Of a DNA stretch of 64,000 nt, positions 27,179 through 42,401 are shown piece by piece. The translations under genes and the position numbers were made by a program. Source of the stretch: Candidatus Omnitrophota bacterium (GTDB taxonomy: Bacteria; Omnitrophota; Gorgyraeia; Zapsychrales; Fredricksoniimonadaceae). The stretch's first letter is position 1. The number at the start of each line of letters is the position of its first letter. The stretch is from contig CAJARJ010000020.1 of the NCBI GenBank assembly GCA_903944345.1, forward strand, positions 18,110 to 82,109, given 5' to 3'. The notes below the pieces were generated by a model that did no database searches, was not told the DNA's origin, and was given only the letters and a program-made list of their open reading frames with translations.

Positions 27179-28102
27179 TCAGCCGCAACGAATGATCCAG
27201 AACATGGCCAAAGACGGCTGCATATTATTGTGCGCCTGGCCGCCCCCAGCGTTTTCTGTCGGATGAAGATATGGCACCGCCGGAATATTGTCATAATCCA
27301 GCGACTCCGCGTTCCCTTGCGCTGACCCGCCCCACCCCTGATTCTCGCTGAAAGTGTAATCATACATATTATGCTTGTGAGCGGGCATTTCCGGGATCGT
27401 CAACACATGCATCTCTGCCCCCAGCCGGCCACCTAGTACCGATGCTGACGGATGACTAACCACATTCGCCGCACTGCCCGTCATATTGTCCATTCCAATG
27501 GGCACGCGTCCCCGAAGGTCAGGCAAGGCAAACGTACTTGTTCCGTCTCCAGCACCATAAACTGTACCGATCAACGCAAACAAAAGAGTGTACTGCTCAC
27601 GTGAAATCGTCCGGCCGTCGCAAGGCAACCAACCCTCAGGTATTGTCGTGCCGGGCCAGGGGATCATGCTGCCAATCGGAAGGGCGGCATCAGGATCCTG
27701 GGCAAAACCGATATCCGACTGCACCCGGCCGTCTTGAACAACGCTTATTGGTGTCATACGCGCAACAAAGGCGGACAGCTGCGCAGGAACTTCTGTCTCA
27801 AGCATCATCCCGGCCCCCGATGAAGATAAAACATACTGACCTCCAAAAGGGTTTTTGCCCTCCCACGCCGCAGGCATATAGCCACCCTCCCTTAAATTTT
27901 GCCAATTCTGCGGCCAGACATGCTCTTTACGCTGAAATGCCCTGACAGCCTCGGTGATCCGCCCTATCTCCGCGACCGTGATGCGGGCAGCCTCAAGCTG
28001 GACACCGCGCAGAACACCGGGCACAACAATACTGACCAGAAGCCCCGCAATCAGCAGAGAAATCGACAGCTCAATCAGAGAAAATCCCTTGTCCGACCCC
28101 AT
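27179..28102 (-). CDS. Minor type IV pilin fused to a phage tail-collar (MdpB-like) domain; putative tip adhesin
   Basis: The class III signal is MGSDKG|FSLIELSISLLIAGLL. The C-terminal half reads GWLPCDGRTISREQYTLLFALIGTVYGAGDGTSTFALPDLRGRVPIG...MPAHKH...GGGQAHNNMQPSLAMFWII, which is the Collar/MdpB signature. A GGAGGTGG RBS is present. Confidence 0.8.
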   Translation of the reverse strand: MGSDKGFSLIELSISLLIAGLLVSIVVPGVLRGVQLEAARITVAEIGRITEAVRAFQRKEHVWPQNWQNLREGGYMPAAWEGKNPFGGQYVLSSSGAGMMLETEVPAQLSAFVARMTPISVVQDGRVQSDIGFAQDPDAALPIGSMIPWPGTTIPEGWLPCDGRTISREQYTLLFALIGTVYGAGDGTSTFALPDLRGRVPIGMDNMTGSAANVVSHPSASVLGGRLGAEMHVLTIPEMPAHKHNMYDYTFSENQGWGGSAQGNAESLDYDNIPAVPYLHPTENAGGGQAHNNMQPSLAMFWIIRCG

Positions 28103-28110: not shown

Positions 28111-28551
28111 CTAGAAAGTCGCCAGCCAGGTTTTGGCCCCTGCGTCATAGGAAAGTGTTTCCGCTTTCCCCCGAAACAATCTGGAAAGACCAGCCGCAGC
28201 ATTATCCGGCACACTCGAAAGCGCAATGTCCACCCGGGTGCGATCCGCTGTATTTGCGTTCACCCGATAATCACCGCCATAACTGTTTGCCCCCGTCGGG
28301 TCAAACGTAGCGGGCAAATACCCGGAACTCTTCATGGCTTCGATACTAATACCTTCATACGTCAGACTCATCACCGACAGATAGTTTTGCGCTGCCAGAC
28401 GCAGGTTATCAACCGACTGGGCCTCTCTTTGCAGACGTGCCTGCGCAGCCATCCCCCCTCCAGCACTAATCATGCCGACGAGCATGGCAATAAGTCCCAA
28501 TGCAATCGAAAGTTCAACAAGAGAAAAACCATCATTTTTGTTTACTCGCAT
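28111..28551 (-). CDS. Type IV pilin (probable major subunit)
   Basis: It has the prepilin leader and N-methylation motif MRVNKNDG|FSLVELSIALGLIAMLVG. It also has the strongest RBS of the operon (AAGGAGGAGCGG-ATG). Confidence 0.8.
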   Translation of the reverse strand: MRVNKNDGFSLVELSIALGLIAMLVGMISAGGGMAAQARLQREAQSVDNLRLAAQNYLSVMSLTYEGISIEAMKSSGYLPATFDPTGANSYGGDYRVNANTADRTRVDIALSSVPDNAAAGLSRLFRGKAETLSYDAGAKTWLATF

Positions 28552-28582: not shown

Positions 28583-29662
28583 TCATGGGTGCATCATCCC
28601 TATATTTGCCAGATTCCCATACAGCGGCCTGAAAAAGGCAAAAACCAGCAACGCCATCACCCCCGCACACAGAAGGATCAACGCCGGCTGCAAAAAATCA
28701 ACAACCCGCTTGACCCGGGACTCCAGAGAACGCCGGCATAGCTGGTAACCCCGGAAGAAATACTCGTCAAGGCATCCGGATAACTCCCCGACTCTAAGAG
28801 TCTCGCCAACCCAGGAAGGGAAATACGCATCCTGCAAAAACGCGGACGACAGCATCTGCCCGCTGACCAGTCTGGTCCGGCAAGAATTCATGTGATAACG
28901 AGTCCGGCCTCCCGACGCGACAGCTGCCTCCGCCAGAGATTCATCCAGAGTAATTCCGCTTTTAAGCATCAACGACAACAGAAAAAATCCCATGGCCAGC
29001 TCCCGATCCCGAATCAGTCGCCCCACAAAAGGACACCGGGCCTGCCAGCCCGAGAACACAAGCGGCTCGGTTCTTTGCACCAGCCAAAGTCCGCCAACGA
29101 TAAGTAAGACAATTCCCAGCCAAAACGGCCACTGCATCCTCACTGTGCAAGCCAGACGCAACATGCCCCCGGTCAAAGGCCCGGAAAAAGTGCTCTGCGG
29201 CAAAAGGCTGCCCAGCCGCGGAACAATCTCGAACGAAATATAACCGGCAACCAAAAGCAGAATGACCAGCACAAACAAAGGATATCCCATAGCTCCAGCC
29301 AGCTGATGTCCTACCTCGTCGCTGGCATGGTAATATTCCGCCAAAGCCCGGGCTGAACGGGAAATTTGTCCTGCCTTGCCGGCAGCGTTGAGTGCGCGCA
29401 AGGCACATTCTTCGAAAATACCGCACTCCCCCATGGCCTGCCCAAGAGACAAGCCCCGGTCAAGGGAACGAAGCATATGCGCACAGGCCCGCGCCAGCGT
29501 CCGGCTTCCGGAAGCCCCTTCGAGGCAGCGCAGCGCGGCACCAAGCGAGAGTCCGGCAGAAAGCATGTTGGAAAGATCTTCGAAAAAGAACGCGGCCTCA
29601 GCCGCCGACAGCTTCTGCCCGGAATAGAATATCCTTAACCAAGAACCCTGACCGCTTCGCAT
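28583..29662 (-). CDS. Type II secretion / type IV pilus platform protein (GspF/PilC family)
   Basis: It has two repeats of the T2SSF pattern (FFFEDLSNMLSAGLSLGAAL; FFLLSLMLKSGITLDESL) and three TM blocks. The start is set at the ATG at 29662, which has a GGAAGGAG RBS; the ORF-track start at 29854 would overlap the ATPase gene by 220 nt. Confidence 0.8.
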   Translation of the reverse strand: MRSGQGSWLRIFYSGQKLSAAEAAFFFEDLSNMLSAGLSLGAALRCLEGASGSRTLARACAHMLRSLDRGLSLGQAMGECGIFEECALRALNAAGKAGQISRSARALAEYYHASDEVGHQLAGAMGYPLFVLVILLLVAGYISFEIVPRLGSLLPQSTFSGPLTGGMLRLACTVRMQWPFWLGIVLLIVGGLWLVQRTEPLVFSGWQARCPFVGRLIRDRELAMGFFLLSLMLKSGITLDESLAEAAVASGGRTRYHMNSCRTRLVSGQMLSSAFLQDAYFPSWVGETLRVGELSGCLDEYFFRGYQLCRRSLESRVKRVVDFLQPALILLCAGVMALLVFAFFRPLYGNLANIGMMHP

Positions 29663-31245
29663 AACGACAACACTCCTTCCCTGACCAAACGACATGCATC
29701 TGCACGCATAGAAACAAACCCCGCGCGGGCGGCCTGCCGGGGCACAAGTTCGCTCATTAACCCCTGCTCGATAAGAAACCGGTCTTCTTCCTCTATACAG
29801 AAAATCTCGGCCACCACTGTCCTCCCGCTGAAGCCACCCCGGCAAGCGGAGCACCCAGCGGGGACAAAAAATTTCCGGTCACTGTGCAAAAGATATGCCT
29901 CGGCACCCGAAGGGATGCCACGGATATCCCCTTCCTTACGGCATTCCGGGCACAATTTACGCACCAGACGCTGGGCTATCACACAATTTAAAGTTGCGGC
30001 CAGATGCGCCCAATCCACGCCAAGGTCTCGCAGACGAAGAAAAGCTCCGGTCGCACTATTGGTATGCAGAGTAGAAAAAACCCGATGTCCGGTCTCTGCC
30101 GCCCGGACAGCCTCGCGAGCGGTTTTCTCGTCGCGAATCTCTCCGACCAGTACAATATCCGGATCATGCCGCAACAAGGCTCTGGTCACATCCGGAAAAT
30201 CGTATCCCTTGGCGCTGTCAACACTGACCTGGGTGACACATGAAGCCCGTACTTCAACCGGATCTTCCACAGATACGATCTTGATCTCGCTATCTTTTAC
30301 CCGACCGATCATGGCATGCAGTCCAGTGGTCTTACCGCAACCGGTCGGACCGGTGATTAAAACCAGTCCATGCGGACGCCGCAAGACGCGCTCCAGCACC
30401 TTCTGGTGTTCCGGCGAATATCCAAGCGGTTCCAGGGACATGGCTTCCCGCCCGCGTTCCAAAAGACGCAAAACCAGCGCAGAACCATTTAAAGACGGCA
30501 AATGGGAAACACGCACATCGACGACCCGTCCCCTGGCCTCAAATTCGAAACGGGCATCATGGAAACGCAAAAAGTCCCCCGCGCTGATCCCGGCACGCCG
30601 AAAAACCCGATTGACAAAAAATGGATGCTCTCCCAGCGGCCAGGAACGGTGAAAATGCAAAACACCGTCGATACGCAACCGGCTCTCGAAAGAAGACGAC
30701 GAAGGCTCGATATGAATATCTGTTGCTCCGGCAACTACAGCCTCGACCAGAATCCGGGCAACAGGATCATCGTCACCGGAATCCGCCCCTTCCGGTTCAG
30801 GACTGACACCACCGCCTGAAGAAGGCCTCAACAACTGCAAGGCCCGGTCAAGAGCACGCGGGGCGGCAACCATAAAAAAGATCTGCGAACCAAAAAGAGC
30901 CCTTAACTCATCGGTCAGTCCGGTCTGCAGGGTATCAGCCAGCACAAAAAATCGGCGTACGGCGCTCCGGGCCGGAAAAATCTTGCGCTTCCTGAAAAAG
31001 TCTTCCCCCAAAGCAGACAAAGCCTCCTGATCCACGCTCCAGTCTCCGTCATAATACGGCCACCCCGACTGCTCTGCTACAGCCCGCGCCACATCTTCTT
31101 CCCGACTCAAATGCTGTTCGACCAGTATCCGTCCCAGACGCCGGCCGCCGCCCTGCGCTTTTTGCACGGCCAGACACATGCTCAAATCTCCTGGACGCAA
31201 CTTATTGCGGCGTATAAGTATAGATCCAAGCCTTTCAGCACTCAT
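29635..31245 (-). CDS. Type IV pilus / T2SS assembly ATPase (PilB/GspE family) with an MshEN-like N-terminal domain
   Basis: The Walker A motif is GPTGCGKTT. The Asp box and Walker B lie at IVSVEDPVE...VLVGEIRD. The His box is TGHRVFSTLHTN. The tetracysteine motif is CPEC...CSAC. Confidence 0.9.
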   Translation of the reverse strand: MSAERLGSILIRRNKLRPGDLSMCLAVQKAQGGGRRLGRILVEQHLSREEDVARAVAEQSGWPYYDGDWSVDQEALSALGEDFFRKRKIFPARSAVRRFFVLADTLQTGLTDELRALFGSQIFFMVAAPRALDRALQLLRPSSGGGVSPEPEGADSGDDDPVARILVEAVVAGATDIHIEPSSSSFESRLRIDGVLHFHRSWPLGEHPFFVNRVFRRAGISAGDFLRFHDARFEFEARGRVVDVRVSHLPSLNGSALVLRLLERGREAMSLEPLGYSPEHQKVLERVLRRPHGLVLITGPTGCGKTTGLHAMIGRVKDSEIKIVSVEDPVEVRASCVTQVSVDSAKGYDFPDVTRALLRHDPDIVLVGEIRDEKTAREAVRAAETGHRVFSTLHTNSATGAFLRLRDLGVDWAHLAATLNCVIAQRLVRKLCPECRKEGDIRGIPSGAEAYLLHSDRKFFVPAGCSACRGGFSGRTVVAEIFCIEEEDRFLIEQGLMSELVPRQAARAGFVSMRADACRLVREGVLSLCEAVRVLG

Positions 31246-31697
31246 AACTCCACCCTCAGGACAATAGTTTCCCCCTGCGCACCTGTCAGAATTGCACCAT
31301 TTTCATCAAGCGAACTGACTTCAAAACCGCCAACACGCTCTTTTTCCCTTGCCCAAACTTGCTGGGCATCAAACTGAAAACAGCCCCGCCAAATCCCCGC
31401 GATAGAAACAACCGAACGCAAGGATAGCGTCAGCGACTGCGCCCGGGAAACCCCGTCCTTCGCTATATCACTGACCTGCAATGGGATATCCGTCCCTATT
31501 TTTTTTAACTCGTGCTCTACTCTGGCTTTTTCCAGATCAAGCTGCAACAGACGCAAGGATTGCTCTTTATCCTGCACACTGGAAGAATATGCTCTTAAGC
31601 GCGACAAAGATTCCTTCATATCCTCTTCTCCTGCTCTGACCGGACCTGACTGCAGCAAAAATGCTGCCACAATTACGGCTATTCCTGTTTTGATCAT
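31242..31697 (-). CDS. Periplasmic coiled-coil protein, PilP-like by position
   Basis: It has a signal peptide (IAVIVAAFLLQSGPVRAGE), a coiled coil and a short beta-rich C-terminus. It has ATGA overlaps at both ends. The assignment is positional only. Confidence 0.35.
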   Translation of the reverse strand: MIKTGIAVIVAAFLLQSGPVRAGEEDMKESLSRLRAYSSSVQDKEQSLRLLQLDLEKARVEHELKKIGTDIPLQVSDIAKDGVSRAQSLTLSLRSVVSIAGIWRGCFQFDAQQVWAREKERVGGFEVSSLDENGAILTGAQGETIVLRVEL

Positions 31698-32188
31698 CCT
31701 TTCACCTGCTCCCCTTTCACAACAATGACCAGCGTTAATACATCTTTTGTTTGTTTAAACTCTTCGAGCTCGAACAATCCTGAACGCATCCCCCCCGAGA
31801 TCACCGCCAACACCCGGCCCAGCATGGCCCGGTCACGGACAGACCCCAGCGATACCTGCAGGCGCGAAGAGTCCAACCCGTCGGCAGCCTCTGGCGAATC
31901 TGTGGAGGTCTGCCCCAAAGAGATTGTTTGCAGAAACACCGAAACTCCTTCCGCCCGGGTCAGATCCTGCAAAAATAGCGTCAGTCGTTCATGCGCCCCT
32001 GAAAGATCATCCGGTCGGCTGTGCGGTAAACTTTGCAAATTCTTTAAACGGCCCCCATCTTGCTGTAACCGGACACGAATCTCCTGCAAGGAAGTCTCCA
32101 CTGCGCGGACAGACTGGTAAACCCCAAGACCATTGTATAAACAGGACACAACCAATCCGCCGGCAAACAGCACAAGAAACAAGCGCAT
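31694..32188 (-). CDS. Bitopic inner-membrane protein, PilO/GspM-like by topology
   Basis: It has a single N-terminal TM (LFLVLFAGGLVVSCLY), a coiled coil and a small periplasmic domain. The assignment is positional. Confidence 0.35.
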   Translation of the reverse strand: MRLFLVLFAGGLVVSCLYNGLGVYQSVRAVETSLQEIRVRLQQDGGRLKNLQSLPHSRPDDLSGAHERLTLFLQDLTRAEGVSVFLQTISLGQTSTDSPEAADGLDSSRLQVSLGSVRDRAMLGRVLAVISGGMRSGLFELEEFKQTKDVLTLVIVVKGEQVKG

Positions 32189-32210
32189 ACCTTCCCTCTC
32201 TCAACAGACA

Positions 32211-33338
32211 TTAAAATCGCGGCTCAACCCGTACAGAGACCTCGACTGCCGGCCGTCCACCCTGAAAAATGCGGTTCAGCTTTCTTTGATGAAAAAGACC
32301 CTCCCGACCAAAACTTCCTTCTCCGCGCACAACAAGAACCGCACCAAAATGCCCTCCGCCTTGCGCATCAGCCCGCCATTGCAGGCTCGCCACAGTCCAT
32401 TCGGGCGGCATATTCCAGATCAATTGATAGAACAACTCATCAAGATTCACTGCCTGCCGGCGGCGCAAGCGTTCCTGATAGGTCTGCGCCAATGCCGAAC
32501 GCAGCAACACATACTGACTGTCCACCTCACGGCTCAACTCCGCACGTAAACTTTCCAACCGGCCAAGATGCTGACGCATAAAAAGATTACCGACGACAAG
32601 CAGACAACCAGTCCCCGCTACCAGTGCCCCTATAACCCAGGATCTTCGGCGACGCACAGAGGTTTCACGGCGTGAAAGCTCCTCAGGGGGCAGGAACCCG
32701 GTTGCAGGATTCCAGAAGCCCGCCGCCAGAAGCCCCGGCGACCCGGCGTCCATCCGCCGGGTCCGCCATCCGGTCTGTGCGGATATTTGCTCAAGACAGG
32801 GATGATTCGAAATTATGCACCGTTTATCCACAGCTGTGCACAACCTGGCACTGCGATGCAGTTCTTCCACTAACGCAGCAGTCTCCAAAGAAGGAAATTC
32901 ACGCGTCTCAACCACCCTGCCGTCCTCGATCACTGTAAGCAAGACCAAACCGCAGATTTCTTCAAGCACCATAACGACTCCGTCAGGAATACCCTGCTCG
33001 TGCCTGACAAAATATTGAGCGACCGCAAGCCCATACGGCGCGCAGCAGGCAATATTGTTCCCGGGGAACAGAGAAAAAATTTCACGGATCCGTTCAACCG
33101 GCATGGCCGCCAAAGAGAATCCCCCACCAGGCAGGCTTTGCTCCATATAAACATTGCTCTGCCCGGATGAAGTCTTGCTGTATGTCTTTTTATCCTCAAA
33201 AACAACCCCGGTCACCAGAACCTGTACCGGCTCCCGGAGAAATGAAAATTCGTCCTTAACGGCATTTCTGGGTATACGACGCAATTGTCCTTGCGTTTCA
33301 TAAATCACGCTGTCAAAAGTAAATACAAGTGTCATCAC
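32211..33338 (-). CDS. Bitopic assembly protein, GspL / PilM-PilN-fusion-like (R64 PilO position)
   Basis: It has a cytoplasmic domain of about 225 aa, one TM (SWVIGALVAGTGCLLVVGNLF), a periplasmic coiled coil and an alpha/beta domain. It has an ATGA overlap with the secretin gene. Confidence 0.4.
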   Translation of the reverse strand: MMTLVFTFDSVIYETQGQLRRIPRNAVKDEFSFLREPVQVLVTGVVFEDKKTYSKTSSGQSNVYMEQSLPGGGFSLAAMPVERIREIFSLFPGNNIACCAPYGLAVAQYFVRHEQGIPDGVVMVLEEICGLVLLTVIEDGRVVETREFPSLETAALVEELHRSARLCTAVDKRCIISNHPCLEQISAQTGWRTRRMDAGSPGLLAAGFWNPATGFLPPEELSRRETSVRRRRSWVIGALVAGTGCLLVVGNLFMRQHLGRLESLRAELSREVDSQYVLLRSALAQTYQERLRRRQAVNLDELFYQLIWNMPPEWTVASLQWRADAQGGGHFGAVLVVRGEGSFGREGLFHQRKLNRIFQGGRPAVEVSVRVEPRF

Positions 33339-34792
33339 AAGCCCTCCCTTGCGGGCGTCAGCATAATGACCAGTTCACTTCGGACACTCCGGCGGGTATC
33401 ATAAGAAAAGATACGCCCCAGAAACGGCAGACGGCCAAGAACCGGAACCCCGTGATGTCTGACCAGCGTATTGCGGGTAATAAGCCCACCAATAACTGCG
33501 GTCTGGCCAAAACGCAAACGCACCATGCTGCTCATCGATTTGACTGATGTTTCCGGAGCCTCAACCCGCGCGCCCTGGCCTAGCTCAACCGAACGGATAT
33601 CGTCAATCATGCTGACCACCGGAGTCACATTGATAAAAACCTCATCTCCAACAATATTCCCCATTAACTGCAGGGTCACTCCTCCATGCACATCCCCCAG
33701 GGTGACCGCGCTGATGGTCTGCCCCGTCTGGCTCATTGTGATGCCGCTCGAATCAATATAAGACCGGGTTTGCCCGACCTGGATACCGGCCAGGGTATTG
33801 TTCAGCATCGTAACCCGCGGCTGGGACACCACCTCAACCCGGCCAAAAACCTCCAGCGCGCGGATCAAGGATGTCACCCCTCCCTGGATTGCCCCTTGCC
33901 CATCTTCTGCTGACAGTTTCAAATAACCTCCGCCAGCAACATTCTCCCCGGAAAAATCCACCACGGCATTCAGGCTGTCCCGGCCTTTACGCTGAAGTAA
34001 TACGTTCCAGTCAATCCCCAGCTTGTGTTCGTTGGAAAGTTCGACTTCAACCAACTTGATATCGGCAAAGATCTGCCGCGACACCCGGGCATTGATTTCA
34101 TCCATAAATGAAGCCACCCGGCTCAACGCCACCGGCGCATCGGTAACCACCGCCAGTCCTCCGCTGCGATTCAGCGAGAGTGTCCCTGCCGGGGTCAACA
34201 AAGAACGGATATTGCGTTCAATATCATCCCAATACGACAACTCGCCGCTTTTGTTCTCCAGAAAAAGACCCGCCCCCACACGCACTCGTCCGGAGGCGCT
34301 ATTCTCTCCCGTCTGCACGCCTCCAGCCCGGCTTTCATTTGATGTCAGGCTTTCCCCTTTCTGCACAACCGGAGGAAGAAATACAGAGAAAATCCTGGTC
34401 TCGCTGGCCAGGACAACAAGATCTTCGCCCTGCTGCCGGACACCATAACCATCAGCATAAACAACGGCTTCCAATGCCCGTTCGACCGTAACCCCGGACA
34501 ACCGCAGATTGATCTCTTTGTCCCGAACACCCGGGCCGATAATCAGATTCTTACCCGCCGCATCGGCCATCAGCTGTAACACTTCATACAAACGAAAACG
34601 GCCGTTGAGCTTGACCGGCAGCGTCGGGGTTTGCTCCGGCATCTGCGCTATGGATTGACGTTCTTCCTGAATAGCCGCCGGACGGGCAGCAACACGTGCC
34701 CATTCTTCGGCCACAACCTTGTTTTCCTGCATCTCGGCCTTGGCCGGAACACTCAACAACATAAGACCCAAAAGCACCCACCCTGTTTTCAT
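33335..34792 (-). CDS. Secretin (type II/IV pilus secretin family, PilN/PilQ-like)
   Basis: The signal peptide is MKTGWVLLGLMLLSVPAKA. The C-terminal secretin signature is VVSQPRVTMLNNTLAGIQVGQ...TAVIGGLI...VPVLGRLPFLGRIFS...ELVIMLTP. The start at the ATG at 34792 has an ATGA overlap and an AAGGAGAG RBS. Confidence 0.85.
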   Translation of the reverse strand: MKTGWVLLGLMLLSVPAKAEMQENKVVAEEWARVAARPAAIQEERQSIAQMPEQTPTLPVKLNGRFRLYEVLQLMADAAGKNLIIGPGVRDKEINLRLSGVTVERALEAVVYADGYGVRQQGEDLVVLASETRIFSVFLPPVVQKGESLTSNESRAGGVQTGENSASGRVRVGAGLFLENKSGELSYWDDIERNIRSLLTPAGTLSLNRSGGLAVVTDAPVALSRVASFMDEINARVSRQIFADIKLVEVELSNEHKLGIDWNVLLQRKGRDSLNAVVDFSGENVAGGGYLKLSAEDGQGAIQGGVTSLIRALEVFGRVEVVSQPRVTMLNNTLAGIQVGQTRSYIDSSGITMSQTGQTISAVTLGDVHGGVTLQLMGNIVGDEVFINVTPVVSMIDDIRSVELGQGARVEAPETSVKSMSSMVRLRFGQTAVIGGLITRNTLVRHHGVPVLGRLPFLGRIFSYDTRRSVRSELVIMLTPAREGL

Positions 34793-35220
34793 TCGAGCTC
34801 TCCTTGCGTAATTTTCTGCCCCGATCCCGGCATCGGGGTTATGTCTGCGACAATAAACGCCCCGGAATGCGTCGGCGATTGCACCACTGGTACTGACAAA
34901 GGGAAAGCTCCGCTTTTCTTCCATTCCCCCGGGGTGATAATGACCGGCTCGGCATGCCGGGGATAAAAAACACCATCGGCAATATGCGCCGGAATGATCA
35001 CATCCTGAACCAGAGGAGCGCTCCAGCTGCCGTCAAGATACGGGAAATCATTACCGTTTAACCCTTCAACCACGTCTCCTATCTGTGCCGACACACCGGC
35101 TCGATACCCCTGCAAATACGTACCGCGTTCCCTGCGGCTGAAGTTCTTCTGCCCCACGCAACCGGCAGAGGCCAGCAGAACAACCACCAATCCCACCCAA
35201 CATCCCCTAACGTAACCCAT
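34789..35220 (-). CDS. Small putative lipoprotein at the T4SS/T4P junction (PilM or pilotin position)
   Basis: The start is trimmed to the ATG at 35220. The N-terminus is MGYVRGCWVGLVVVLLASAGCVGQ, with a lipobox-like SAGC. No motif is recognised. Confidence 0.4.
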   Translation of the reverse strand: MGYVRGCWVGLVVVLLASAGCVGQKNFSRRERGTYLQGYRAGVSAQIGDVVEGLNGNDFPYLDGSWSAPLVQDVIIPAHIADGVFYPRHAEPVIITPGEWKKSGAFPLSVPVVQSPTHSGAFIVADITPMPGSGQKITQGELE

Positions 35221-37723
35221 GTGGCATCTTTCCGGCGCACACCATAAGCGCCCTGGTGAGGTTCCCATCCTGTTGACGACGAATTTCATCCAGAAATTCG
35301 TTCTCCCTGGCATCGCTGGTTGCCGCCCAATACAAAAAAGGATCAGGAGCCAGACGAATGACCCCGCCGCCTGTACCGGCAAGCAGCAAAGCTTCTGAAT
35401 AGCGCCCCCGCACCGTAACCAGAGAACGCAAAAGTTCCCCGGTCTGCGGACTAAAGGCCAGCTCCCGGCACAACCGTTCAATAATCCCGCTTTCCTGACG
35501 TAAAAATATCTTGTGCGCGCTATTCGCCAGGATGGCCAATCCTGCCGGCTGCTGCAACAAGTCAGCGGTTTCCTGGGTCACCGCCACAGCCGCACAGCGA
35601 TATTTCCGAAACGTTTTGAAAGCCGCCGAAATGAAATCCGCTGTCGATGACGTTTTTAACAACTGCCAGGCCTCATCAATAATCAGAAACTTGTTTTTAC
35701 CGCGCAATTCCTCGGCCGAAACAAAGCCGGTTATCAAAAACATGATATTAAGCAAGGCCACCAGTTGCAGATCCGGGTAACGGGAGATTTGTGCCAGTTC
35801 AAAGACCGTAAAACGTCCTCCGGGTGCAAATTGATTCTGCCCGTCAAAGAAAGCCCCATACTGTCCCCTGCGGGTATAGGGCATAAGTCGCAGGGCCAGG
35901 CGAAACGCCATATCTGCTCCGCTGACCCCGGCGAAACAAACCGAAGGATCTTCCAGAACGGATACCACATCGCTTAGAACCAGCTCCCGACTACTGTTTT
36001 GATCATGCCGGGCATACGCCTCCAGCACAGCCAGATGCAGAACCCCTTTCTCTTCCCGCGAAAGGCGGTCACGTTCGTCCCCTCCGCTGGCCATTAATGC
36101 CAGCATATCTACCAGAAAAGCCAGCCCCTCGGACTGAAGCGTCCTGGCAAAAGGATTTATCAACACCGGGGAAGACATATCGAGTGAAACATAGCTGCCA
36201 CCCAGCACCTCGCAGGTCTTCCGGTAAGAGTGCCCCTTGTCGAGCACAAAGAAATGCGCTCCGGTCCGGTAGTTCTGATGAATAAAATCATTGGTAAAAA
36301 ATGATTTCCCTGCTCCTGAAGCGCCAATAATCACCGCATGCGGATTGGTGTCGGAATCAAACAGATCGAAGAACACCGGCTCCCCCCTGCGGTTAAGATA
36401 AACCGCCGCCGGCGTGCCAGTTCCCTGGAAGGCCCCATATAAAGGAAGCATATCCGCAAGATTGTCCGATAACATTCGCCTTTTACGTCGGATAAAAGGT
36501 TCGCGGCGATGATCATAATTCAATGGCAGGCAAGTCAGAAACAATGACGACCCGATAGCATCTTCCCGCACAGCCTGCATTCCACTGCGGCCCAGAAGAT
36601 GAATAATATGATCGGCCTGTCGCAACGACTCCTGCTCGTCAACACTGCCGCAGACAAAATGAATCCTGGCCTCAAGAACCGACTGTCCTCCCTGAAAAAG
36701 CCGGCTAATGACCGCACTAAGCTCTTCTTTCTTGCCTACGGCCTCCTCGCTGACATCTCCCAGCGAGGAAGACCGACGGATGAAAGCAAAAGCTTTCTGT
36801 GCCTTGAGCTTGGCGAGCGCCCGGCTCTGATCAGGCACAATAAAGTTGAAGACCATAGCCATATCGCCCAGCTCATCCCAGAAGCTTCCTCTGTGCCCGG
36901 CCAGCAACATCCCGGCGAAAGTCTGTGCGGGAAGCTCTTTAATGGTGACCATCCGCAGGGTCGTGCCGTCAAGTTTCAGCCCTTCGGAAGATATTTTCAC
37001 CGGACTATACAAAAGCTGATCCCGAATAAAACCCTGATCCCGAACGGGAGGCGGAACATGCTGCGAACGGCGGGGATTGAGCATTTTATACAAAAGAGCA
37101 GTTATGTCCTTTCCATCCAGGCAGACACAGGCAAGCCCCAGTGAACGCAGACCATTCTCGATCTGGCGAACCTGCCGCAAAAATTTCTCTTTATGTTCCT
37201 GCCATTGAAGAGAAATGACGCGTGACACCTGACGAGTATCACAAAAGAAAGCCTCTGCCCTGACCCCGCCAGGCACATTCCGCCAGGAAGGAAAGACGCG
37301 CACCGAGAAAATCAGCCTGATCCGCCTGACTTTCACTCGGTCCATCGTTTGTCCGTTTCGCGCCAGTGCGACCATGGAGGTCAAACGGCTGTCAAGCGCT
37401 GCGGCCACCACTTCCGAATTCTGCGCGCAACCAAACAAGCGATAACGCTCCAGCAAAGGCTCAATATCATCACTCCCCCATAGAATCACCTGCGCGTGTA
37501 CATCCGACGGAAGAGTTCCGATAAAAGCGGCCAATCCCAAAGAAAATTTTTCCCGCTCCTCGTCACAGGCCAGCTCCACATCACGGCTGACGATTTGCCA
37601 GACCCGACCCAGGCTGCCATCAACATTCAGTAATACGCCCTCAACCTCTTCTGCATAGGGCAAGTAATCAGCCAAAGATGGGCCATCGGCAAAAAGCTTG
37701 TTTATATCCTGGTCTTTCAACAT
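35207..37723 (-). CDS. traC: TraC/VirB4-family T4SS ATPase
   Basis: It is 838 aa. The N-terminus is F-TraC-like (LPYAEEVEGVLLNVDGSLGRVWQI). Walker A is IIGASGAGKSFF and Walker B is FLIIDEAWQLL. Confidence 0.9.
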   Translation of the reverse strand: MLKDQDINKLFADGPSLADYLPYAEEVEGVLLNVDGSLGRVWQIVSRDVELACDEEREKFSLGLAAFIGTLPSDVHAQVILWGSDDIEPLLERYRLFGCAQNSEVVAAALDSRLTSMVALARNGQTMDRVKVRRIRLIFSVRVFPSWRNVPGGVRAEAFFCDTRQVSRVISLQWQEHKEKFLRQVRQIENGLRSLGLACVCLDGKDITALLYKMLNPRRSQHVPPPVRDQGFIRDQLLYSPVKISSEGLKLDGTTLRMVTIKELPAQTFAGMLLAGHRGSFWDELGDMAMVFNFIVPDQSRALAKLKAQKAFAFIRRSSSLGDVSEEAVGKKEELSAVISRLFQGGQSVLEARIHFVCGSVDEQESLRQADHIIHLLGRSGMQAVREDAIGSSLFLTCLPLNYDHRREPFIRRKRRMLSDNLADMLPLYGAFQGTGTPAAVYLNRRGEPVFFDLFDSDTNPHAVIIGASGAGKSFFTNDFIHQNYRTGAHFFVLDKGHSYRKTCEVLGGSYVSLDMSSPVLINPFARTLQSEGLAFLVDMLALMASGGDERDRLSREEKGVLHLAVLEAYARHDQNSSRELVLSDVVSVLEDPSVCFAGVSGADMAFRLALRLMPYTRRGQYGAFFDGQNQFAPGGRFTVFELAQISRYPDLQLVALLNIMFLITGFVSAEELRGKNKFLIIDEAWQLLKTSSTADFISAAFKTFRKYRCAAVAVTQETADLLQQPAGLAILANSAHKIFLRQESGIIERLCRELAFSPQTGELLRSLVTVRGRYSEALLLAGTGGGVIRLAPDPFLYWAATSDARENEFLDEIRRQQDGNLTRALMVCAGKMPHGLR

Positions 37724-37725
37724 CT

Positions 37726-38133
37726 CTATGGCTCCTTGGCCGTATCCGGAACTTGCGGAATAATGACGGACATCTCCTGATCCATTCCCTGTTGTCGATC
37801 AATAAACCATTCGGCCGGGCGCAACATCACAAATGCCCAGTGCCCGCCAACCATTACCTCCCGCTCTCCTCCGGAAACATGCGCGGGCACCCAGACTTTG
37901 ATAACCTTGGGAGGAAGAACAACGGGGACATACGGCTTCACATGCCCTGTATCGACTCCCCAAACCACCGTTTGTGACTCTTTCTCTGCCCCCGAAGACC
38001 GGGCAGCAGCACGATACGTTCCTCCCAAGGTCACAGCGTCTTTCCTGACGACACTCACCGGACCTCGTGCAGACAAAGAGCAGCCGCTAGTCAACAGAAC
38101 GATAAAAATCAACCGAATCCCGAGCCATCCCAT
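37726..38133 (-). CDS. TraV-like outer-membrane lipoprotein (VirB7 analogue)
   Basis: It has a lipobox-like N-terminus (LIFIVLLTSGCSL) and is small. It sits in the position between traB and traC, as in F-type operons. Confidence 0.5.
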   Translation of the reverse strand: MGWLGIRLIFIVLLTSGCSLSARGPVSVVRKDAVTLGGTYRAAARSSGAEKESQTVVWGVDTGHVKPYVPVVLPPKVIKVWVPAHVSGGEREVMVGGHWAFVMLRPAEWFIDRQQGMDQEMSVIIPQVPDTAKEP

Positions 38134-39241
38134 GGATACGAAATCCTTTCTGTACGATCACATACACACGTACTCCCGGTTGAACCATCACTGCCGGAAC
38201 AATCATGTCCAGTTGCTGCTGGTAGTACCGCGACAACTGTGCGGTGCTCTGGGCCATCCCCGAAAAAAGCGCATGTTTGGCCGCATTGCCGGTCAATGTC
38301 CGTGACTCTTTCCCGTCTTGCGTAACGGCAGAGACTTCCCCGTCGGCGACAGCCTGCGAAGCTCCGCCCATAAACCCACTCATAAACGATGCCGCCAGAC
38401 GCCCTGCGGTATTGCGCACAACCACACCTTTAAGCCCCAGCTGCCCCGAACGATCCGTCAAATACCCGAAAACTCCCGACTGTTCAAAACTTGCTCCTGT
38501 CGGAAAAACAGCCGCCAGTTTTTCCGCTTCAATCAAAGCCCGCTCGCTGTTAAGATCGCCCGTCGCCTTGCCCAGAACAAAAGCTCCTTCAAGTGCAATC
38601 GCCGAAGCATTCGGACCGGTAAAGGCTTCATCAAGCCTGATCAGGACGGGCAAAGAATTGTTCCCGTCCGCCGGAGCGTACACTCCGGTCAACAGTGTCC
38701 CCGACACAAAGCTGCCCGCCGGCAGATACACATCCATGGACTCCTGATCGGGTTCCTGCACGGCTACTATGTCAAGCTGCTGGCGTGATTCTGCCCCATT
38801 CTTGTCTGCTGGTTCGCTCCCTTCCCTACGTAACCGTTTGGCAACCGCCTGCAGGCTCAGCACAGCAGTTTTTGTTTTCTTTATCGATTCACGCATCTCC
38901 TCGAACCTGGTGTTAAGTTTTGTAACCTTGCGGGACATTTCGTCATTCTTGCGTGCGACACTGTCATATTGTTTTTCCAGGCGTTCGACATAAGCCTTGC
39001 GATCCACCTCTTCTCCCAGAAACATTCCTCTGCCCGTATCTTTAAGTTGCCCTGTCGAAGAAACAGCCTGTACGACACCATGAGACTCCTGCCCTTTGCC
39101 TCTCTCCTGTTTTGACGAAAAGACAAACATCAGGACAAAAAAAAGAGCCGCTCCCGCCGCAATAATCAGCAGACCGCTCTTCTCACTTCCGGACCCAACC
39201 CTTTCAAACAAACCGCGCAAGCGGGCTAACAAATCTTTCAT
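38087..39241 (-). CDS. traB: TraB/VirB10-family T4SS core protein
   Basis: It has an N-terminal TM, a coiled coil and then the TrbI/VirB10-type barrel region LPAGSFVSGTLLTGVYAP...LPVLIRLDEAFTGPN...GDLNSERALIE...GYLTDRSGQLGLKGVVV, which resembles F TraB. Confidence 0.75.
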   Translation of the reverse strand: MKDLLARLRGLFERVGSGSEKSGLLIIAAGAALFFVLMFVFSSKQERGKGQESHGVVQAVSSTGQLKDTGRGMFLGEEVDRKAYVERLEKQYDSVARKNDEMSRKVTKLNTRFEEMRESIKKTKTAVLSLQAVAKRLRREGSEPADKNGAESRQQLDIVAVQEPDQESMDVYLPAGSFVSGTLLTGVYAPADGNNSLPVLIRLDEAFTGPNASAIALEGAFVLGKATGDLNSERALIEAEKLAAVFPTGASFEQSGVFGYLTDRSGQLGLKGVVVRNTAGRLAASFMSGFMGGASQAVADGEVSAVTQDGKESRTLTGNAAKHALFSGMAQSTAQLSRYYQQQLDMIVPAVMVQPGVRVYVIVQKGFRIHGMARDSVDFYRSVD

Positions 39242-39957
39242 CGCCTTAACACCAGATACAGGGTTGTAGAATCACTCTTACGTCCGCGTGCCTGCAAGAT
39301 GTCTCGCTCAACCGTGCCAAGCAGCAGTCCCGGCAAACTCAACCTTTGCAGAGGAATCACCAATGCCCGACCAAGCAGATTCTCAGCCCGCACCACCCAT
39401 CCTTTAAGTTGGGCTGTCGTATAACTCCTGATCACAGTCAGACGCATGGTCTTATCCTGCCAGAGCAGCTCCGAATCGCTTGACTCCGTCGCGCCAGAAG
39501 GCTTTTGCCCTAAAACCATGGCCTTGAGCATGCCCAAAGCATGATCTTGCCTGAAGGAAACAGCGGCCGTATCTCTGGAGATATAAATACGTTCCCCCGA
39601 AAAAACCTGTTGCTCAAGAGAAAGCTCCGAGGAGGAAAACCTGATCCTGAAAGAACGACCTCCACGATCAATAATCACCAATTCAGAATTATCACAACGC
39701 CGTGGCGTAACAAAAACCCGGCCGGGCGCATGTTCTACCTCGAGCGCTTCGGAACTTCCTGAACGAACCAGGTGCGACACTCCGCCCTCGACAACTATCT
39801 CGGTCATGTGCCCCGGAGTGCACGCAATCAGGCTGCTTCCCTCTTGCTCAATACGTAGCGGCACCTGCGCCTCGGCCAAAGTACAGACAAAACATAATCC
39901 AAGAACAAAACCCAAGACCCTAAAGCGCATCCTCATCTGCCTCCTTTGACCAGACAT
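39238..39957 (-). CDS. TraK-like (VirB9 analogue) periplasmic / outer-membrane core protein
   Basis: It has a signal peptide (VLGFVLGLCFVCTLAEAQ) and is about 240 aa and beta-rich. It lies between the traE-like gene and traB, with an ATGA overlap to traB. The assignment is mainly positional. Confidence 0.55.
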   Translation of the reverse strand: MSGQRRQMRMRFRVLGFVLGLCFVCTLAEAQVPLRIEQEGSSLIACTPGHMTEIVVEGGVSHLVRSGSSEALEVEHAPGRVFVTPRRCDNSELVIIDRGGRSFRIRFSSSELSLEQQVFSGERIYISRDTAAVSFRQDHALGMLKAMVLGQKPSGATESSDSELLWQDKTMRLTVIRSYTTAQLKGWVVRAENLLGRALVIPLQRLSLPGLLLGTVERDILQARGRKSDSTTLYLVLRR

Positions 39958-40507
39958 CCTCTACAACAAGACCATAAATATTCTCTCCAGCCGCCGGGAC
40001 TCGCCGCACAACAACAACATAACGCACATCTTTCATTGCAATTTCTTCCTTGCCCATATAAACCCCGCGCTTGCCGTCGATTTCTACCCGGAATGAGCGC
40101 CCTTCGGAAGCAACCCGTGCGTCATCTGTAAGCGTAAATATCGATGAAAGCCGGTCAGAAAGAATCTTTCCGCGTTCCTCCTGCGAACGGGCGCGGACTT
40201 TGGAAAGCAGCTGTGGTCCCATAAACCGGAAAGCCCGCGAATAAACTCCGTCAATCGTCTCTGGAGTATAATTCATCCAGTCCATTAACCAGGCCGAAGC
40301 GAAAGAAAGAACCGAACTTTCTGGTATCCGGTCGGGATAAGCCAGGCCCGCTTGTGCTGCCCCCGGAATATAATAGATCGGACGGGGCCGAAACGCTGTC
40401 ACCGCCAGCAATACAGCGAATATCACGCTTAAGCTTCCCAAAAGATAAAGAACATAATGCAGTTTTACATTCTCGAATTCCGCTCCGGCATAACGTTCAA
40501 AAAACAT
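39920..40507 (-). CDS. TraE-like (VirB8 analogue) bitopic T4SS protein
   Basis: The start is trimmed to the ATG at 40507, which has an AAGGAAGG RBS. It has a single N-terminal TM (YVLYLLGSLSVIFAVLLAVTAF) followed by a periplasmic domain of about 150 aa. It follows traL. Confidence 0.5.
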   Translation of the reverse strand: MFFERYAGAEFENVKLHYVLYLLGSLSVIFAVLLAVTAFRPRPIYYIPGAAQAGLAYPDRIPESSVLSFASAWLMDWMNYTPETIDGVYSRAFRFMGPQLLSKVRARSQEERGKILSDRLSSIFTLTDDARVASEGRSFRVEIDGKRGVYMGKEEIAMKDVRYVVVVRRVPAAGENIYGLVVEDVWSKEADEDAL

Positions 40508-40793
40508 CCTGGCCTTCCTTGCTATAAATGCTGTAAAAACGCTCGGGCCCCGGCGGCAGCAATCCTCTGAAGCCAACTCCCTGCCGGTACAGCCAATGAA
40601 TCAGATATCCTTCCGGTTTCCCGCGCTTGAACGCGGCCAGACATGGCCAGATGAAAAACAACGCGATCAACGGAACTGCCGGAGAAAACACAATTGCCGG
40701 TACCCCGCACAATAAAAGAATCACAGCGACATCTTCACCCTCAAGGCCCAGAATAAGAAGAGGCCGGTCAATTGTTCTTGGACACGGTTTCAT
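40497..40793 (-). CDS. traL: TraL-like (VirB3 analogue) small membrane protein
   Basis: It is 98 aa. The pattern IDRPLLILGLEGEDVAVILLLCG fits the TraL pattern (xxD.P..ilG...de followed by a TM). It lies directly after the pilin gene. Confidence 0.6.
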   Translation of the reverse strand: MKPCPRTIDRPLLILGLEGEDVAVILLLCGVPAIVFSPAVPLIALFFIWPCLAAFKRGKPEGYLIHWLYRQGVGFRGLLPPGPERFYSIYSKEGQDVF

Positions 40794-40794
40794 T

Positions 40795-41082
40795 TTATCC
40801 TCCGAATATCCCCAGAAAATTGGGCAGAAATACCAGCGCCAGCAAGGCTAAAACACAACCCACCGCGGCCCCGTACTCCTGATGAATAATTTTCCAGACC
40901 CCAATAAGTAAAAATACCAGCGCCAGAACCTTGGAAGCCGGTCCGGTCATAACCTTGACCATAAAATCCGCCAGACCGTTAAATTCCGTCACCGCCCGTT
41001 CCTGTGATCCCGACTGGGCAAAAGCAACCTGGCTCCACAAACTTAAGATCATCCCCGCCAAAACAGGCAACACCTTCTTCAT
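40795..41082 (-). CDS. VirB2/TraA/TrbC-type conjugative pilin
   Basis: It is 95 aa. The signal peptide ends AFA|Q, and two hydrophobic helices follow (VLALVFLLIGVW; VGCVLALLALVFLPNFLGIF). An AAAGGAG RBS is present. Confidence 0.6.
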   Translation of the reverse strand: MKKVLPVLAGMILSLWSQVAFAQSGSQERAVTEFNGLADFMVKVMTGPASKVLALVFLLIGVWKIIHQEYGAAVGCVLALLALVFLPNFLGIFGG

Positions 41083-42344
41083 ACGGCTCCTTTAACTGTC
41101 GGTTGAAAAATCATCTTTGCTCTCGTGAAAAATAAAAGCGCGCTCACCAGGACACACCCAAGAATAACGACAATCCCGACAGCCACTCCCACAGCCACTC
41201 CCAGAGATTCACGAAAGCCCTGCAGATCACTCCGCAGCAAAATAACCCGGCTGCAACTATCCAGAACCGTCAGACAAAACGGGCAAAGTTTGAGTACTAA
41301 CAACCCGCGAAAATACCCCAACAGAATATCCAGATTGCCTTTGAGCATAACAGCCAAAAGAAACACAGGAAAAAAGACATACCAACCGGCAAGCATTCCT
41401 CCCAGAACATAGGGCCAGCCACTCAAGACCATACGAGCCGCCGCAAGAAATTTGTCGAAAAGCTCATATGCCGGAATAACCCCGTCCTGACAAAACTTGT
41501 CCTGACAGGTAAAAACACCATATTCCCCCGGTCTGCGCTGCGTTTCCAGAATCAGAAAATCCCTGACCGAAAGCTCTACAACCGGACTTTGCAGACCAAA
41601 CAGCCTGTGAGCCTTCTCTAATAAGTGATTCTTGCCATCAAGATACTTATATAAAGACTCCTGCAATTCCCCCCAGCGACGCCCATCCTGCGCGGAATAT
41701 CGTGCAACCACCCTGGAATCTCCCGGCCATAATCCGGACGGCATAAGGCTGTTATTTTCCGACACAAGTCTTTTCAGAACAGGAAGATATGTTTCCGAAT
41801 AGAATACTTTCACCTGCTCCTTAAGACCGCCATCAGCAATGCCCTGTGAAAAAAGACGCGCCACCAGAACCGAAAGATTGATTGGCAGAAACGGACTCTT
41901 CAGAAAACCCTCTCCGGCAACCTCTTGAACTTCCATAATATTGATGAGATTATTGGAGAACCCATTCAATAGCTGCACTGTCGTCAAGAAAACCGGATTA
42001 ATCGTCAGCCTGCCCAACCCATGTTTTTCCAACAAGCCCGTTGTTGAAACCTCCCTGAAACCTCGTTCTTCCATAACCGACGGATATCCCGCAAGCTCAG
42101 TCGAGGGCAAAACAAATAACATCCATACACTAAAAAAAATCAAACAAAACATCATAAAAGGACGAATACTCCCCGCGCGGACAGATCGCCACAATGCCAG
42201 AATAAACCCCAGACCAAAAAGACTTTTGCCAAACGCACTTTGCAGAAAAAGAAATTCAATAAGAGCGTGTGAGCGATCCAGGCCTATTAATTCAAAAGCA
42301 TTCTCAACGGGCGTTATGGCTGACAACATCATTAGATTGTCCAA
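41079..42344 (-). CDS. Polytopic inner-membrane protein, first gene of the operon; possible VirB6 / TraG-N analogue
   Basis: It has several TM segments at both ends flanking a soluble loop of about 200 aa. The ORF-track start is a TTG at 42344; ATGs at 42332 and 42329 are alternatives. The functional guess is positional only. Confidence 0.4.
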   Translation of the reverse strand: MDNLMMLSAITPVENAFELIGLDRSHALIEFLFLQSAFGKSLFGLGFILALWRSVRAGSIRPFMMFCLIFFSVWMLFVLPSTELAGYPSVMEERGFREVSTTGLLEKHGLGRLTINPVFLTTVQLLNGFSNNLINIMEVQEVAGEGFLKSPFLPINLSVLVARLFSQGIADGGLKEQVKVFYSETYLPVLKRLVSENNSLMPSGLWPGDSRVVARYSAQDGRRWGELQESLYKYLDGKNHLLEKAHRLFGLQSPVVELSVRDFLILETQRRPGEYGVFTCQDKFCQDGVIPAYELFDKFLAAARMVLSGWPYVLGGMLAGWYVFFPVFLLAVMLKGNLDILLGYFRGLLVLKLCPFCLTVLDSCSRVILLRSDLQGFRESLGVAVGVAVGIVVILGCVLVSALLFFTRAKMIFQPTVKGAV

Positions 42345-42373: not shown

Positions 42374-42401
42374 AATATAGCATAAATTGACATCATGTCA
42401 A
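42374..42401 (-). promoter_or_regulatory. Sigma70-like promoter of the Tra/Pil operon (-35 TTGACA, 16-nt spacer, -10 TATATT)
   Basis: Read on the minus strand. TTGACA is the complement of 42396-42401 and TATATT is the complement of 42374-42379. The -35 element is embedded in the perfect palindrome ATTGACAT-C-ATGTCAAT (42386-42402). Confidence 0.45.

Follow-up and report, generated by a model that had tools for sequence, protein, structure and literature searches.

Type IV secretion systems (T4SSs) and type IV pili are usually treated as separate machines that at most cooperate. A T4SS accompanied by an accessory type IV pilus is a known pairing, described for R64, TP114, and PAPI-1, and the PilV-type adhesin of such systems chooses the recipient and stabilizes mating (PMC9045228, PMC5297154). 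TraV's C-terminal domain (V150-N204) consists of two antiparallel β-strands and a loop and is found between the C-terminal domains of TraK, in the belt of the outer ring; each F-type outer-ring unit has two such hairpins, differently placed (PMC8770708). The LG domain of the lipoprotein secretin BfpB, composed of an acylated cysteine, a helix, and a two-stranded binding region, replaces the pilotin (PMC12531336). Here, we analyze a locus of a Candidatus Omnitrophota bacterium where genes of a T4SS and of a type IV pilus share one operon. It lies in a stretch of 64,000 nucleotides of contig CAJARJ010000020.1 (positions 18,110 to 82,109), called the window below, and all the window genes given with coordinates are on the minus strand. 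The pairing of a T4SS with a pilus is already known. The unexpected trait of this locus is an apparent paralog of the T4SS component TraV, encoded at the boundary between the two modules and fused to the pilus secretin in relatives, which may be the evolutionary trace of a physical coupling.

The operon spans about 17.4 kb, from 42344 to 24993, and its genes are co-directional and overlapping or closely spaced. The TraK-, TraB-, and TraV-like genes, traC, a gene for a 143-aa lipoprotein, and a full-length secretin gene all belong to it. A complete type IV pilus gene set is nested within this reduced F-type T4SS operon, between traC/lipoprotein and traU. The original prediction for this region, made from the DNA sequence alone, had proposed that two different outer-membrane conduits were encoded back to back, a T4SS core complex and a secretin with its own small lipoprotein, the latter being the physical hinge between the modules and a candidate pilotin or adaptor. 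The core genes and an intact secretin gene are present in one operon at the predicted minus-strand positions; the secretin is not a lone second conduit, however, since it opens a full pilus module. The lipoprotein gene is real and stands at the exact boundary between the modules.

This lipoprotein, which we call TraV2 (34789..35220), has a signal peptide with Cys21, a helix (residues 29 to 55), a conserved β-hairpin (residues ~65 to 101), and a disordered tail. Its N terminus, MGYVRGCWVGLVVVLLASAGC, is a signal peptide with the lipobox LLASAGC. Both overlaps noticed in the original prediction were confirmed: the ATG at 35220 overlaps the end of traC by 14 nt, and the TGA (34791-34789) overlaps the secretin ATG (34792-34790) in an ATGA junction, with AAGGAG upstream. 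The program listing the open reading frames (ORFs) gave longer versions of the secretin (33335-34924) and of the lipoprotein (34789-35481), and the shorter starts, those of the original prediction, were favored because of homologs of 485 aa (P0010) and 143 aa (P0002), respectively, and of the resulting signal peptides. That the gene is coding is indicated by 9 close homologs retrieved by word search, 115 cluster representatives found with a hidden Markov model (HMM) among 1.84 billion proteins, conserved motifs, and a recurring gene order. An identical copy is present on a 630-kb contig. The lipobox cysteine never varies in the alignment of 9 sequences and hardly does across 91. Both alignments have P77 in every sequence, whereas H89 is in all of the 9 and in nearly all of the 91. 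The nine close homologs share the invariant or near-invariant motifs GYRxGV, GNDFPY, and W..P.VQ.V.IPAH...G.F.P.H.E....P..W.

By sequence comparison, TraV2 is a remote paralog of the TraV-like lipoprotein encoded two genes upstream in the same operon. The resemblance is visible in the motifs of both proteins, PPKVIKVWVPAHVSGGEREVMVGGHWAFVMLRPAEW in the TraV-like protein and APLVQDVIIPAHIADGVFYPRHAEPVIITPGEW in TraV2. The two families were matched by hhalign at 96% (E = 4.8e-9); the value drops to 55% (E = 1.2e-4) with small alignments deprived of signal peptides and lipoboxes, and it is 95.3% (E = 2.2e-8) over a 44-column hairpin when 72 mature sequences are compared with 9. In addition, a phmmer search with the window TraV-like protein retrieved the lipoprotein of locus L020 at 4e-4. 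AlphaFold2, run with the 91-sequence alignment, predicted the helix and the hairpin, the latter with a predicted local distance difference test (pLDDT) score of 94 to 98. When this model was searched with Foldseek against 350,542 chains of the PDB, the two best matches, 46 and 55 aa long, came from 7oko and 7spb, entries of the outer ring of the F-type T4SS of pED208 (probability, 0.99; target-normalized TM-scores, 0.56 to 0.61). Both entries contain TraV, and the lengths of the two chains fit the TraV C-terminal domain. The next matches of the hairpin were chains of the Legionella Dot/Icm outer-membrane cap (6x62_AC, 7muq, and 9ngu; probability up to 0.93), and the modeled fold suggests that a similar hairpin may be used in type IVB core complexes. 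No Pfam or NCBIfam family matched 39 distant members of the lipoprotein family, and no Pfam family matched the 9 close homologs. Against PDB sequences, the lipoprotein profile matched only a seed storage protein (E = 0.64) and the TraV-like profile gave no match. The comparison of the lipoprotein family with a single TraV sequence of the F plasmid by hhalign gave signal peptides or nothing. R64-type PilM, PilL/TcpQ, and the N terminus of Yersinia PilN were also considered as relatives of the lipoprotein and were discarded, with the same outcome in hhalign.

The position of the family in other T4SSs tells where the lipoprotein comes from. Its members are encoded directly after traC/virB4, with an overlapping start, in loci L020 and L017 and in the Pseudomonas megaplasmid L021, and after a 7-nt gap in locus L018. 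The overlap in L020 is 14 nt, as in the window, and the TraC and TraU proteins of the two loci are 43 to 44% identical. L020 encodes a complete F-like set: TraG_N, a type IV coupling protein (T4CP), a pilin, TraL, TraE, TraK, TraB, TraV, TraC, the lipoprotein, a 195-aa gene product, TraU, a 191-aa gene product, TraF, and TraH, the products of 195 and 191 aa being unassigned; L017 and L018 resemble it. No secretin was annotated or detected in loci L020, L017, L018, and L021. The conserved location after traC/virB4 in secretin-free T4SSs implies that the lipoprotein was ancestrally a T4SS component. The plasmids of PLSDB carrying the family are almost all Pseudomonas megaplasmids (133 of 136 records), with NC_009444 of Pseudomonas fluorescens SBW25 among them. 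The homolog in L021 (NZ_CP018048.1, 9001-9387 of the locus) overlaps the end of virB4 and is a hypothetical protein by annotation; it is encoded three genes downstream of an annotated "TraV family lipoprotein," which is matched by the product of 37726..38133 in the window. The Pseudomonas homolog appears to be an unrecognized second TraV-like component of its T4SS lineage. The locus thereby brings to light an unannotated lipoprotein of this type, placed right after VirB4, that is widespread among divergent F-like T4SSs, those of large Pseudomonas plasmids being of this lineage.

The secretin (33335..34792, 485 aa) is the first gene of the pilus module and has a short N0-N3-secretin architecture. 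It matched the Pfam Secretin profile (PF00263) over positions 1 to 165 of 169 (99.8 bits, cutoff of 27.5), which shows that it is full-length and not degenerate. The last residue of this domain is 480, so that just 5 residues separate it from the stop and no C-terminal S domain is left. The protein also matched NCBIfam PilN (TIGR02520) over model positions 120 to 511 of 513 (8e-45; 153.4 bits, cutoff of 287.65) and MshL (TIGR02519) over positions 2 to 287 of 290 (3e-54; 184 bits, cutoff of 250.2). By these scores, it is related to the PilN and MshL families and a curated member of neither. Its N terminus, MKTGWVLLGLMLLSVPAKA/E, is an ordinary signal peptide of the type cleaved by signal peptidase I (AKA/E) without a cysteine, and the secretin is therefore not itself a lipoprotein. 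The closest solved structure is that of BfpB, both by sequence (2.4e-14) and by the fold of the homolog P0016 (1.2e-19). The N0 and N1/N3-type ring domains ahead of the secretin core were read from this homolog, which is 53% identical: its AlphaFold2 model shows βαββα-type domains at residues 89 to 166 and 200 to 281 (pLDDT of 73 to 89), and Foldseek aligned it with BfpB and PilQ over the full length and also with N-domain structures of XcpQ and GspD. Among species-representative genomes, the closest secretins (46 to 54% identity) are those of Candidatus Omnitrophota metagenome-assembled genomes (MAGs).

TraV2 and the secretin are linked by natural fusions. Close secretin homologs fall into 34 cluster representatives, and 16 of these have the hairpin fused at the N terminus (10 were caught by a regular expression and 6 more were read from the printed N termini). 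The fused forms lack the N-terminal helix of the lipoprotein and keep a strongly conserved motif, W..P.V..V.MPAG...GV[FY].P..DE.V...PG.W. They constitute one clade, at least 58% identical to P0016, compared with at most 54% for the unfused secretins. In L004 and L005, the fused ORF follows traC directly, and there is no separate lipoprotein gene between them. These sequences suggest a single fusion event whose motif was kept through substantial divergence, and a fusion kept in this way counts as Rosetta-stone evidence for a hairpin that functions while physically associated with the secretin. It argues for an adaptor role, in which the binding partner could be the ring of secretin N domains, the C-terminal domains of TraK, or both. 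A lipobox cysteine was read from the N-terminal sequences of 9 of the 16 fused secretins. The unfused subgroup that includes the window secretin, P0020, P0023, P0025, P0031, and P0037 has in common the motif "[AK]EEWA[RK][VI]" right after the signal peptide (residues ~20 to 35 in the window protein). One possibility is that this is a docking site for the separate lipoprotein.

Synteny with related loci places the boundary between the modules in a broader context. The closest one, L010, is 85 to 90% identical and contains the whole operon between matching rml and GAPDH flanks. The order traC-lipoprotein-secretin recurs in L006 and L010 to L013. Among the more distant loci, L004, L006, and L011 to L013 keep this core, with the lipoprotein hairpin of L004 being part of the secretin. 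The secretin and alignment genes adjoin tra genes in L003 (1427-3479), L005 (11341-13347), and L006 (11317-12953), L003 being cut at the secretin, and small toxin-antitoxin-like ORFs take the place of the pilus genes in L003 and L006. Relocation or decay may explain these three loci without pilus genes, or else the secretin may have another use there.

Taken together, we regard it as moderately probable that the locus is a chromosomal reduced F-type T4SS operon with an inserted pilus module, and that its lipoprotein is a TraV paralog whose hairpin was later fused to the secretin in one clade of Omnitrophota. The gene content, the homologies, the synteny, and the fusions are the observations behind this account, to which we add conditional proposals on binding partners and biological role. 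TraV2 would have belonged ancestrally to the T4SS lineage, always after traC/virB4. The pilus module would have landed directly behind it, between TraV2 and traU, and the fusion of the TraV2 β-hairpin to the secretin would have come later, in one clade. TraV2 would be lipid-anchored in the outer membrane, and its hairpin, which in F-type systems is a wedge between the C-terminal domains of TraK, would attach the secretin to the outer membrane or to the outer ring of the T4SS, or to the two at once. It would then act like the lipidated LG domain of BfpB. The pilus, with a tail-collar adhesin, may bind target cells and pull them to the T4SS, as the pili of R64, TP114, and PAPI-1 do. A bolder version, which we consider rather unlikely, joins T4SS and type IV pilus physically into a single envelope machine: secretin subunits would be tethered by a TraV-type hairpin in the TraK/TraV ring of a T4SS without a coupling protein, Omnitrophota nanobacteria would use the chromosomal apparatus to grab a host or prey cell by means of the tail-collar adhesin pilus and exchange DNA or proteins through the neighboring T4SS channel, and the hairpin family, found unannotated after virB4 in Pseudomonas megaplasmids, would supply a second outer-ring lipoprotein generally in a large, uncharacterized T4SS lineage.

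Several observations weigh against the proposed account. The HMM of the lipoprotein family gave no significant match to the canonical TraV of F and pED208, and the Pfam TraV model did not match the lipoprotein. The link with TraV is consequently transitive, through the neighboring TraV-like family and the fold match. The E values of this fold match are poor (0.18 to 0.25), because the hairpin domain is tiny, and the chains of 7oko and 7spb were assigned to TraV by their length, not from chain records. About half of the fused secretins have no lipobox cysteine, which weakens the part of the account that makes the hairpin a lipid anchor for the secretin. In the AlphaFold2 model of the natural fusion P0016, the region of the hairpin has a pLDDT below 50 and is undocked, thus being uninformative on the partner. 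No pilus ATPase, platform, pilin, or TraU gene is near the secretin in L003, L005, and L006. Finally, the screened ORFs of the window include no gene for a prepilin peptidase, a retraction ATPase, a T4CP, or a relaxase.

The alternatives differ in the partner that they give to the lipoprotein. It could serve the T4SS outer ring only, e.g., at one of two nonequivalent positions of TraV C-terminal domains per TraK dimer, so that the neighboring secretin would be a by-product of the insertion and the fusions neutral mergers. The retention of the position after traC in secretin-free T4SSs, the two differently placed TraV hairpins of the F-type outer-ring unit (PMC8770708), and the hairpin left undocked on the secretin by AlphaFold2 are all compatible with this. 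Neutral mergers are harder to reconcile with a fusion clade that persists down to 58% secretin identity with a strongly conserved hairpin motif and a lost N-terminal helix; besides, the fused loci have no free copy between traC and the secretin, meaning that a hairpin serving the ring drags the secretin along. We therefore hold a role restricted to the ring to be unlikely. At the other extreme, the lipoprotein would be a dedicated pilotin taking the secretin to the outer membrane via the Lol pathway, without any T4SS role. This is quite unlikely, even if an outer-membrane-type lipoprotein gene that directly precedes the secretin gene and is joined to it by translational coupling (ATGA), a fusion present across a whole clade, and a secretin with an ordinary signal peptide only, which something must target to the outer membrane, are what one would expect of a pilotin. 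The family is also found after traC/virB4 in T4SS loci without a secretin, the lipoprotein is homologous to the TraV-like gene product, no pilotin was among its Foldseek matches in the PDB, the S domain at the C terminus, to which classical pilotins bind, is missing from the secretin, and the absence of the cysteine from many fused forms indicates that lipidation is not the conserved feature. The original prediction is to be amended on the lipoprotein as well. The secretin does not have a lipoprotein of its own by descent, since the family follows traC/virB4 in T4SSs that have no secretin. The adaptor half of "pilotin or adaptor" stands, with the hairpin fused to the secretin in relatives, and the classical pilotin falls, for the lipoprotein shares with pilotins only its outer-membrane type. 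The fold and profile comparisons suggested with that prediction gave nothing for PilM or pilotins and pointed to the TraV family, through the neighboring gene and the outer-ring chains.

A further alternative turns the argument around: the T4SS itself would have taken over the secretin to serve as its outer-membrane channel, in a true hybrid machine. L003, L005, and L006 retain the secretin and three alignment genes beside tra genes, with no pilus ATPase, platform, or pilins in the locus, and the fusion of a hairpin from a T4SS core lipoprotein to a secretin would suit such a channel. Yet, TraB retains the VirB10/TrbI C-terminal domain, and the pilus set is complete in the window, L004, L010, and L011. 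The loci devoid of pilus genes are also devoid of TraU, and the toxin-antitoxin-like insertions of L003 and L006 make rearrangement or relocation likelier; furthermore, these loci are fragments of MAGs. We consider this hybrid channel very unlikely and keep the account of a T4SS lipoprotein that became an adaptor of the pilus secretin.

The remaining T4SS genes were assigned as follows. The first operon gene encodes a polytopic membrane protein of 421 aa (41079..42344), TraG_N/VirB6-like, with hydrophobic segments at 58-86, 312-358, and 376-413. Pfam TraG_N was matched weakly (0.021) by 2 members of a pooled scan, and its assignment to the 421-aa family is an attribution. This family is kept at the same position in L004 to L006 and L010. 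It is followed by a 95-aa conjugative pilin of the TraA/VirB2 type (40795..41082), with a signal peptide and two hydrophobic helices (Pfam TrbC, 4e-4; NCBIfam TraA_gammapb, 4e-4), a VirB3-like TraL (40497..40793; Pfam TraL, 1.6e-6; TIGR02762, 31.7 bits for a cutoff of 30.95), and a VirB8-like TraE (39920..40576; Pfam TraE, 1.8e-7). The first start codon of the TraE ORF probably precedes the true start, the L010 ortholog being called at 195 aa. The VirB9-like outer-ring subunit (TraK-like, 39238..39957) is encoded between TraE and TraB. TraK_C was matched by 5 members of the pooled scan (best, 6.7e-6), a count equal to that of the TraK-like sequences entered, and the N-terminal part gave 0.03 with VirB9/TrwF. 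The VirB10-like TraB (38087..39241) matched Pfam TrbI (6.3e-23) and the NCBIfam F-type TraB (1e-17). The TraV-like outer-membrane lipoprotein (37726..38133, 135 aa), in the role of VirB7, has the lipobox LLTSGC and matched Pfam TraV (PF09676) at 0.0028; in the pooled scan, 5 members matched this model (best, 8.3e-5), which again equals the number of TraV-like sequences entered. The assignments of TraK, TraB, and TraV are weak singly and consistent together. The VirB4 ATPase TraC (35207..37723; stop TAG, 35209-35207) matched TIGR02746 (5e-117) and Pfam TraC_F_IV and P-loop_TraG. On the other side of the pilus module are TraU (26255..27157; Pfam TraU, 3e-28), 44% identical to that of L020, and the last operon gene, encoding a TraH-like protein (24993..26363; phmmer, 5e-28 to an L020 gene with a weak Pfam TraH match). 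The F-type (MPF_F) core set, TraA, L, E, K, B, V, and C plus TraG_N, was thus entirely detected, several members weakly. Of the F-specific periplasmic set (TraW, TrbC, TraU, TraN, TraF, and TraH), only TraU and the TraH-like gene were found.

The pilus module comprises nine genes, from the secretin to an adhesin-pilin (27179-34792). The gene following the secretin is kept there in all related loci and encodes a bitopic pilus assembly protein of 375 aa (32211..33338), with a cytoplasmic domain, a transmembrane segment (233-254), and a periplasmic domain. Its position and topology suggest a counterpart of BfpC/PilO2; homology to R64-type PilO2 was considered and rejected, as the comparison showed no sequence similarity. 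Two small proteins without a Pfam or NCBIfam match come next: a 164-aa periplasmic protein anchored by its N terminus (31694..32188), with a putative PilN/PilO-like role, and a secreted periplasmic protein of 151 aa with a signal peptide (31242..31697), with a putative PilP/BfpU-like role. The extension ATPase of the GspE/PilB family (29635..31245; Pfam T2SSE, 3e-97) has an N-terminal MshE-type region binding cyclic di-GMP, whose scores are at the cutoffs (MshEN, 22.4 bits for 23.1; NF053729, 37.9 for 38) and hint at control of pilus extension by this messenger. The platform protein of the GspF/PilC family (28583..29854; Pfam T2SSF, 1.4e-32) probably has an internal start, giving about 359 aa, the length of the L010 ortholog. 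The major type IV pilin (28111..28551, 146 aa) has a short leader, MRVNKNDG/FSLVE, and the N_methyl motif, and its L011 ortholog matches PilS weakly. The last gene encodes a pilin-like adhesin of 307 aa (27179..28102), where a prepilin N terminus (N_methyl) precedes a phage tail Collar domain (8.9e-26) and a domain like T4 Gp10_C. This architecture recurs in L011 (11126-11956) and suggests that a module by which phages bind receptors serves here as the adhesin of a pilus.

The locus is chromosomal. The operon is flanked by housekeeping genes (rmlBDCA, GAPDH, MTHFR, HisG, a SurA-like gene, an ABC-F protein, and RluD-like genes), and rml and GAPDH also flank the cluster in L010, which led us to reject the reading as a fragment of a plasmid or of an integrative and conjugative element. 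In L005, the gene upstream of the cluster encodes a phosphoglucose isomerase. A DNA-level search of the region against plasmids, in near and distant modes, gave no match. A screen of window ORFs of at least 120 aa, which took in nearly all the nonoverlapped ones, gave no coupling protein, relaxase, or integrase, and neither T4CP nor relaxase genes adjoin the cluster in L005. Canonical conjugation is not supported. The GC content is 0.53 to 0.57 over most of the T4SS and pilus operon (26000-40000) and lower, 0.49 to 0.52, at its upstream end and in the rml region (40000-46000), a contrast that may be taken as a mild hint of acquisition of the cluster. Just 5′ of the first operon gene, a sigma-70-like promoter pattern, TTGACA-16-TATATT with TG, is matched at 11 of 12 positions (42374..42401); this is a pattern match only. 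The GAPDH of the window (23750-24811) is 93% identical to that of L003 (6717-7772), an Omnitrophota MAG whose secretin is only 47% identical, which could mean that conservation is strong or that gap was transferred recently. The gene next past GAPDH on the downstream side of the operon encodes a protein of 1980 aa (17598-23540) that combines a papain-like peptidase C1 region with PKD domains and with InlB B-repeat domains, five in number and divergent; these domains suggest that it may be a large surface or secreted protease-adhesin. Farther away lie five radical SAM genes (797-2443, 3860-4927, 5858-6859, 7689-9134, and 15218-16693), of which three encode B12-binding domains. Genes for family 9 glycosyltransferases, for methyltransferases, and for a UbiA prenyltransferase are scattered between them, in what may be a cluster for lipid or glycan modification.

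The literature on Omnitrophota that we searched discusses pili (type IVa and Tad), systems like the type II secretion system, and giant proteins, and does not mention T4SSs; the locus is a concrete candidate for a cell-contact apparatus of this phylum. Its closest analogs, the pilL-V region of R64/IncI1, TP114/IncI2, and the integrative and conjugative element PAPI-1, also join a T4SS and a type IV pilus on one element, and the gene order is alike: secretin, bitopic assembly protein, small protein, ATPase, platform, major pilin, and adhesin-type minor pilin. The pilus of these systems has an operon of its own next to an I-type or G-type T4SS, whereas in the window it is nested in an F-type tra operon, between traC and traU. 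The window operon also lacks genes for PilL/TcpQ, PilM, a prepilin peptidase (PilU), and a lytic transglycosylase, no shufflon-diversified PilV was recognized among its genes, its adhesin has a phage tail collar domain, and its secretin remains below the equivalog cutoff of PilN. Unlike R64, TP114, and PAPI-1, it is chromosomal, with no T4CP or relaxase among the ORFs screened within 64 kb.

At the level of the lipoprotein, the TraV of F/pED208 (7oko and 7spb) and TraV2 are both outer-membrane lipoproteins with a C-terminal two-stranded hairpin, whose loop has a conserved proline, glycine, and histidine. TraV2 is encoded after traC, whereas the place of TraV is between traB and traC; a 27-residue helix stands in TraV2 instead of the N-terminal cone-binding domain and long linker of TraV, and, unlike TraV, TraV2 coexists with a conventional TraV-like gene. 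The layout of TraV2 (acylated cysteine, α-helix, and two linked β-strands) resembles that of the LG domain located N-terminally to N0 in BfpB of enteropathogenic Escherichia coli. This element is part of BfpB itself, a separate polypeptide in the window, and reduced to the fused hairpin in the relatives. The BfpB system includes BfpG, while the window has no gene for an N0-like partner of the BfpG/TcpQ type, and the secretins PilN, BfpB, and TcpC are lipoproteins, unlike the window secretin. The uncharacterized T4SSs of Pseudomonas megaplasmids (e.g., NZ_CP018048, pQBR103-like) have a like local order, with a TraV family lipoprotein, a small gene, VirB4, and a member of the lipoprotein family with an overlapping start. 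They differ from the window in being on plasmids, in having a coupling protein, and, over the 18 kb examined, in lacking both a secretin and a pilus module.

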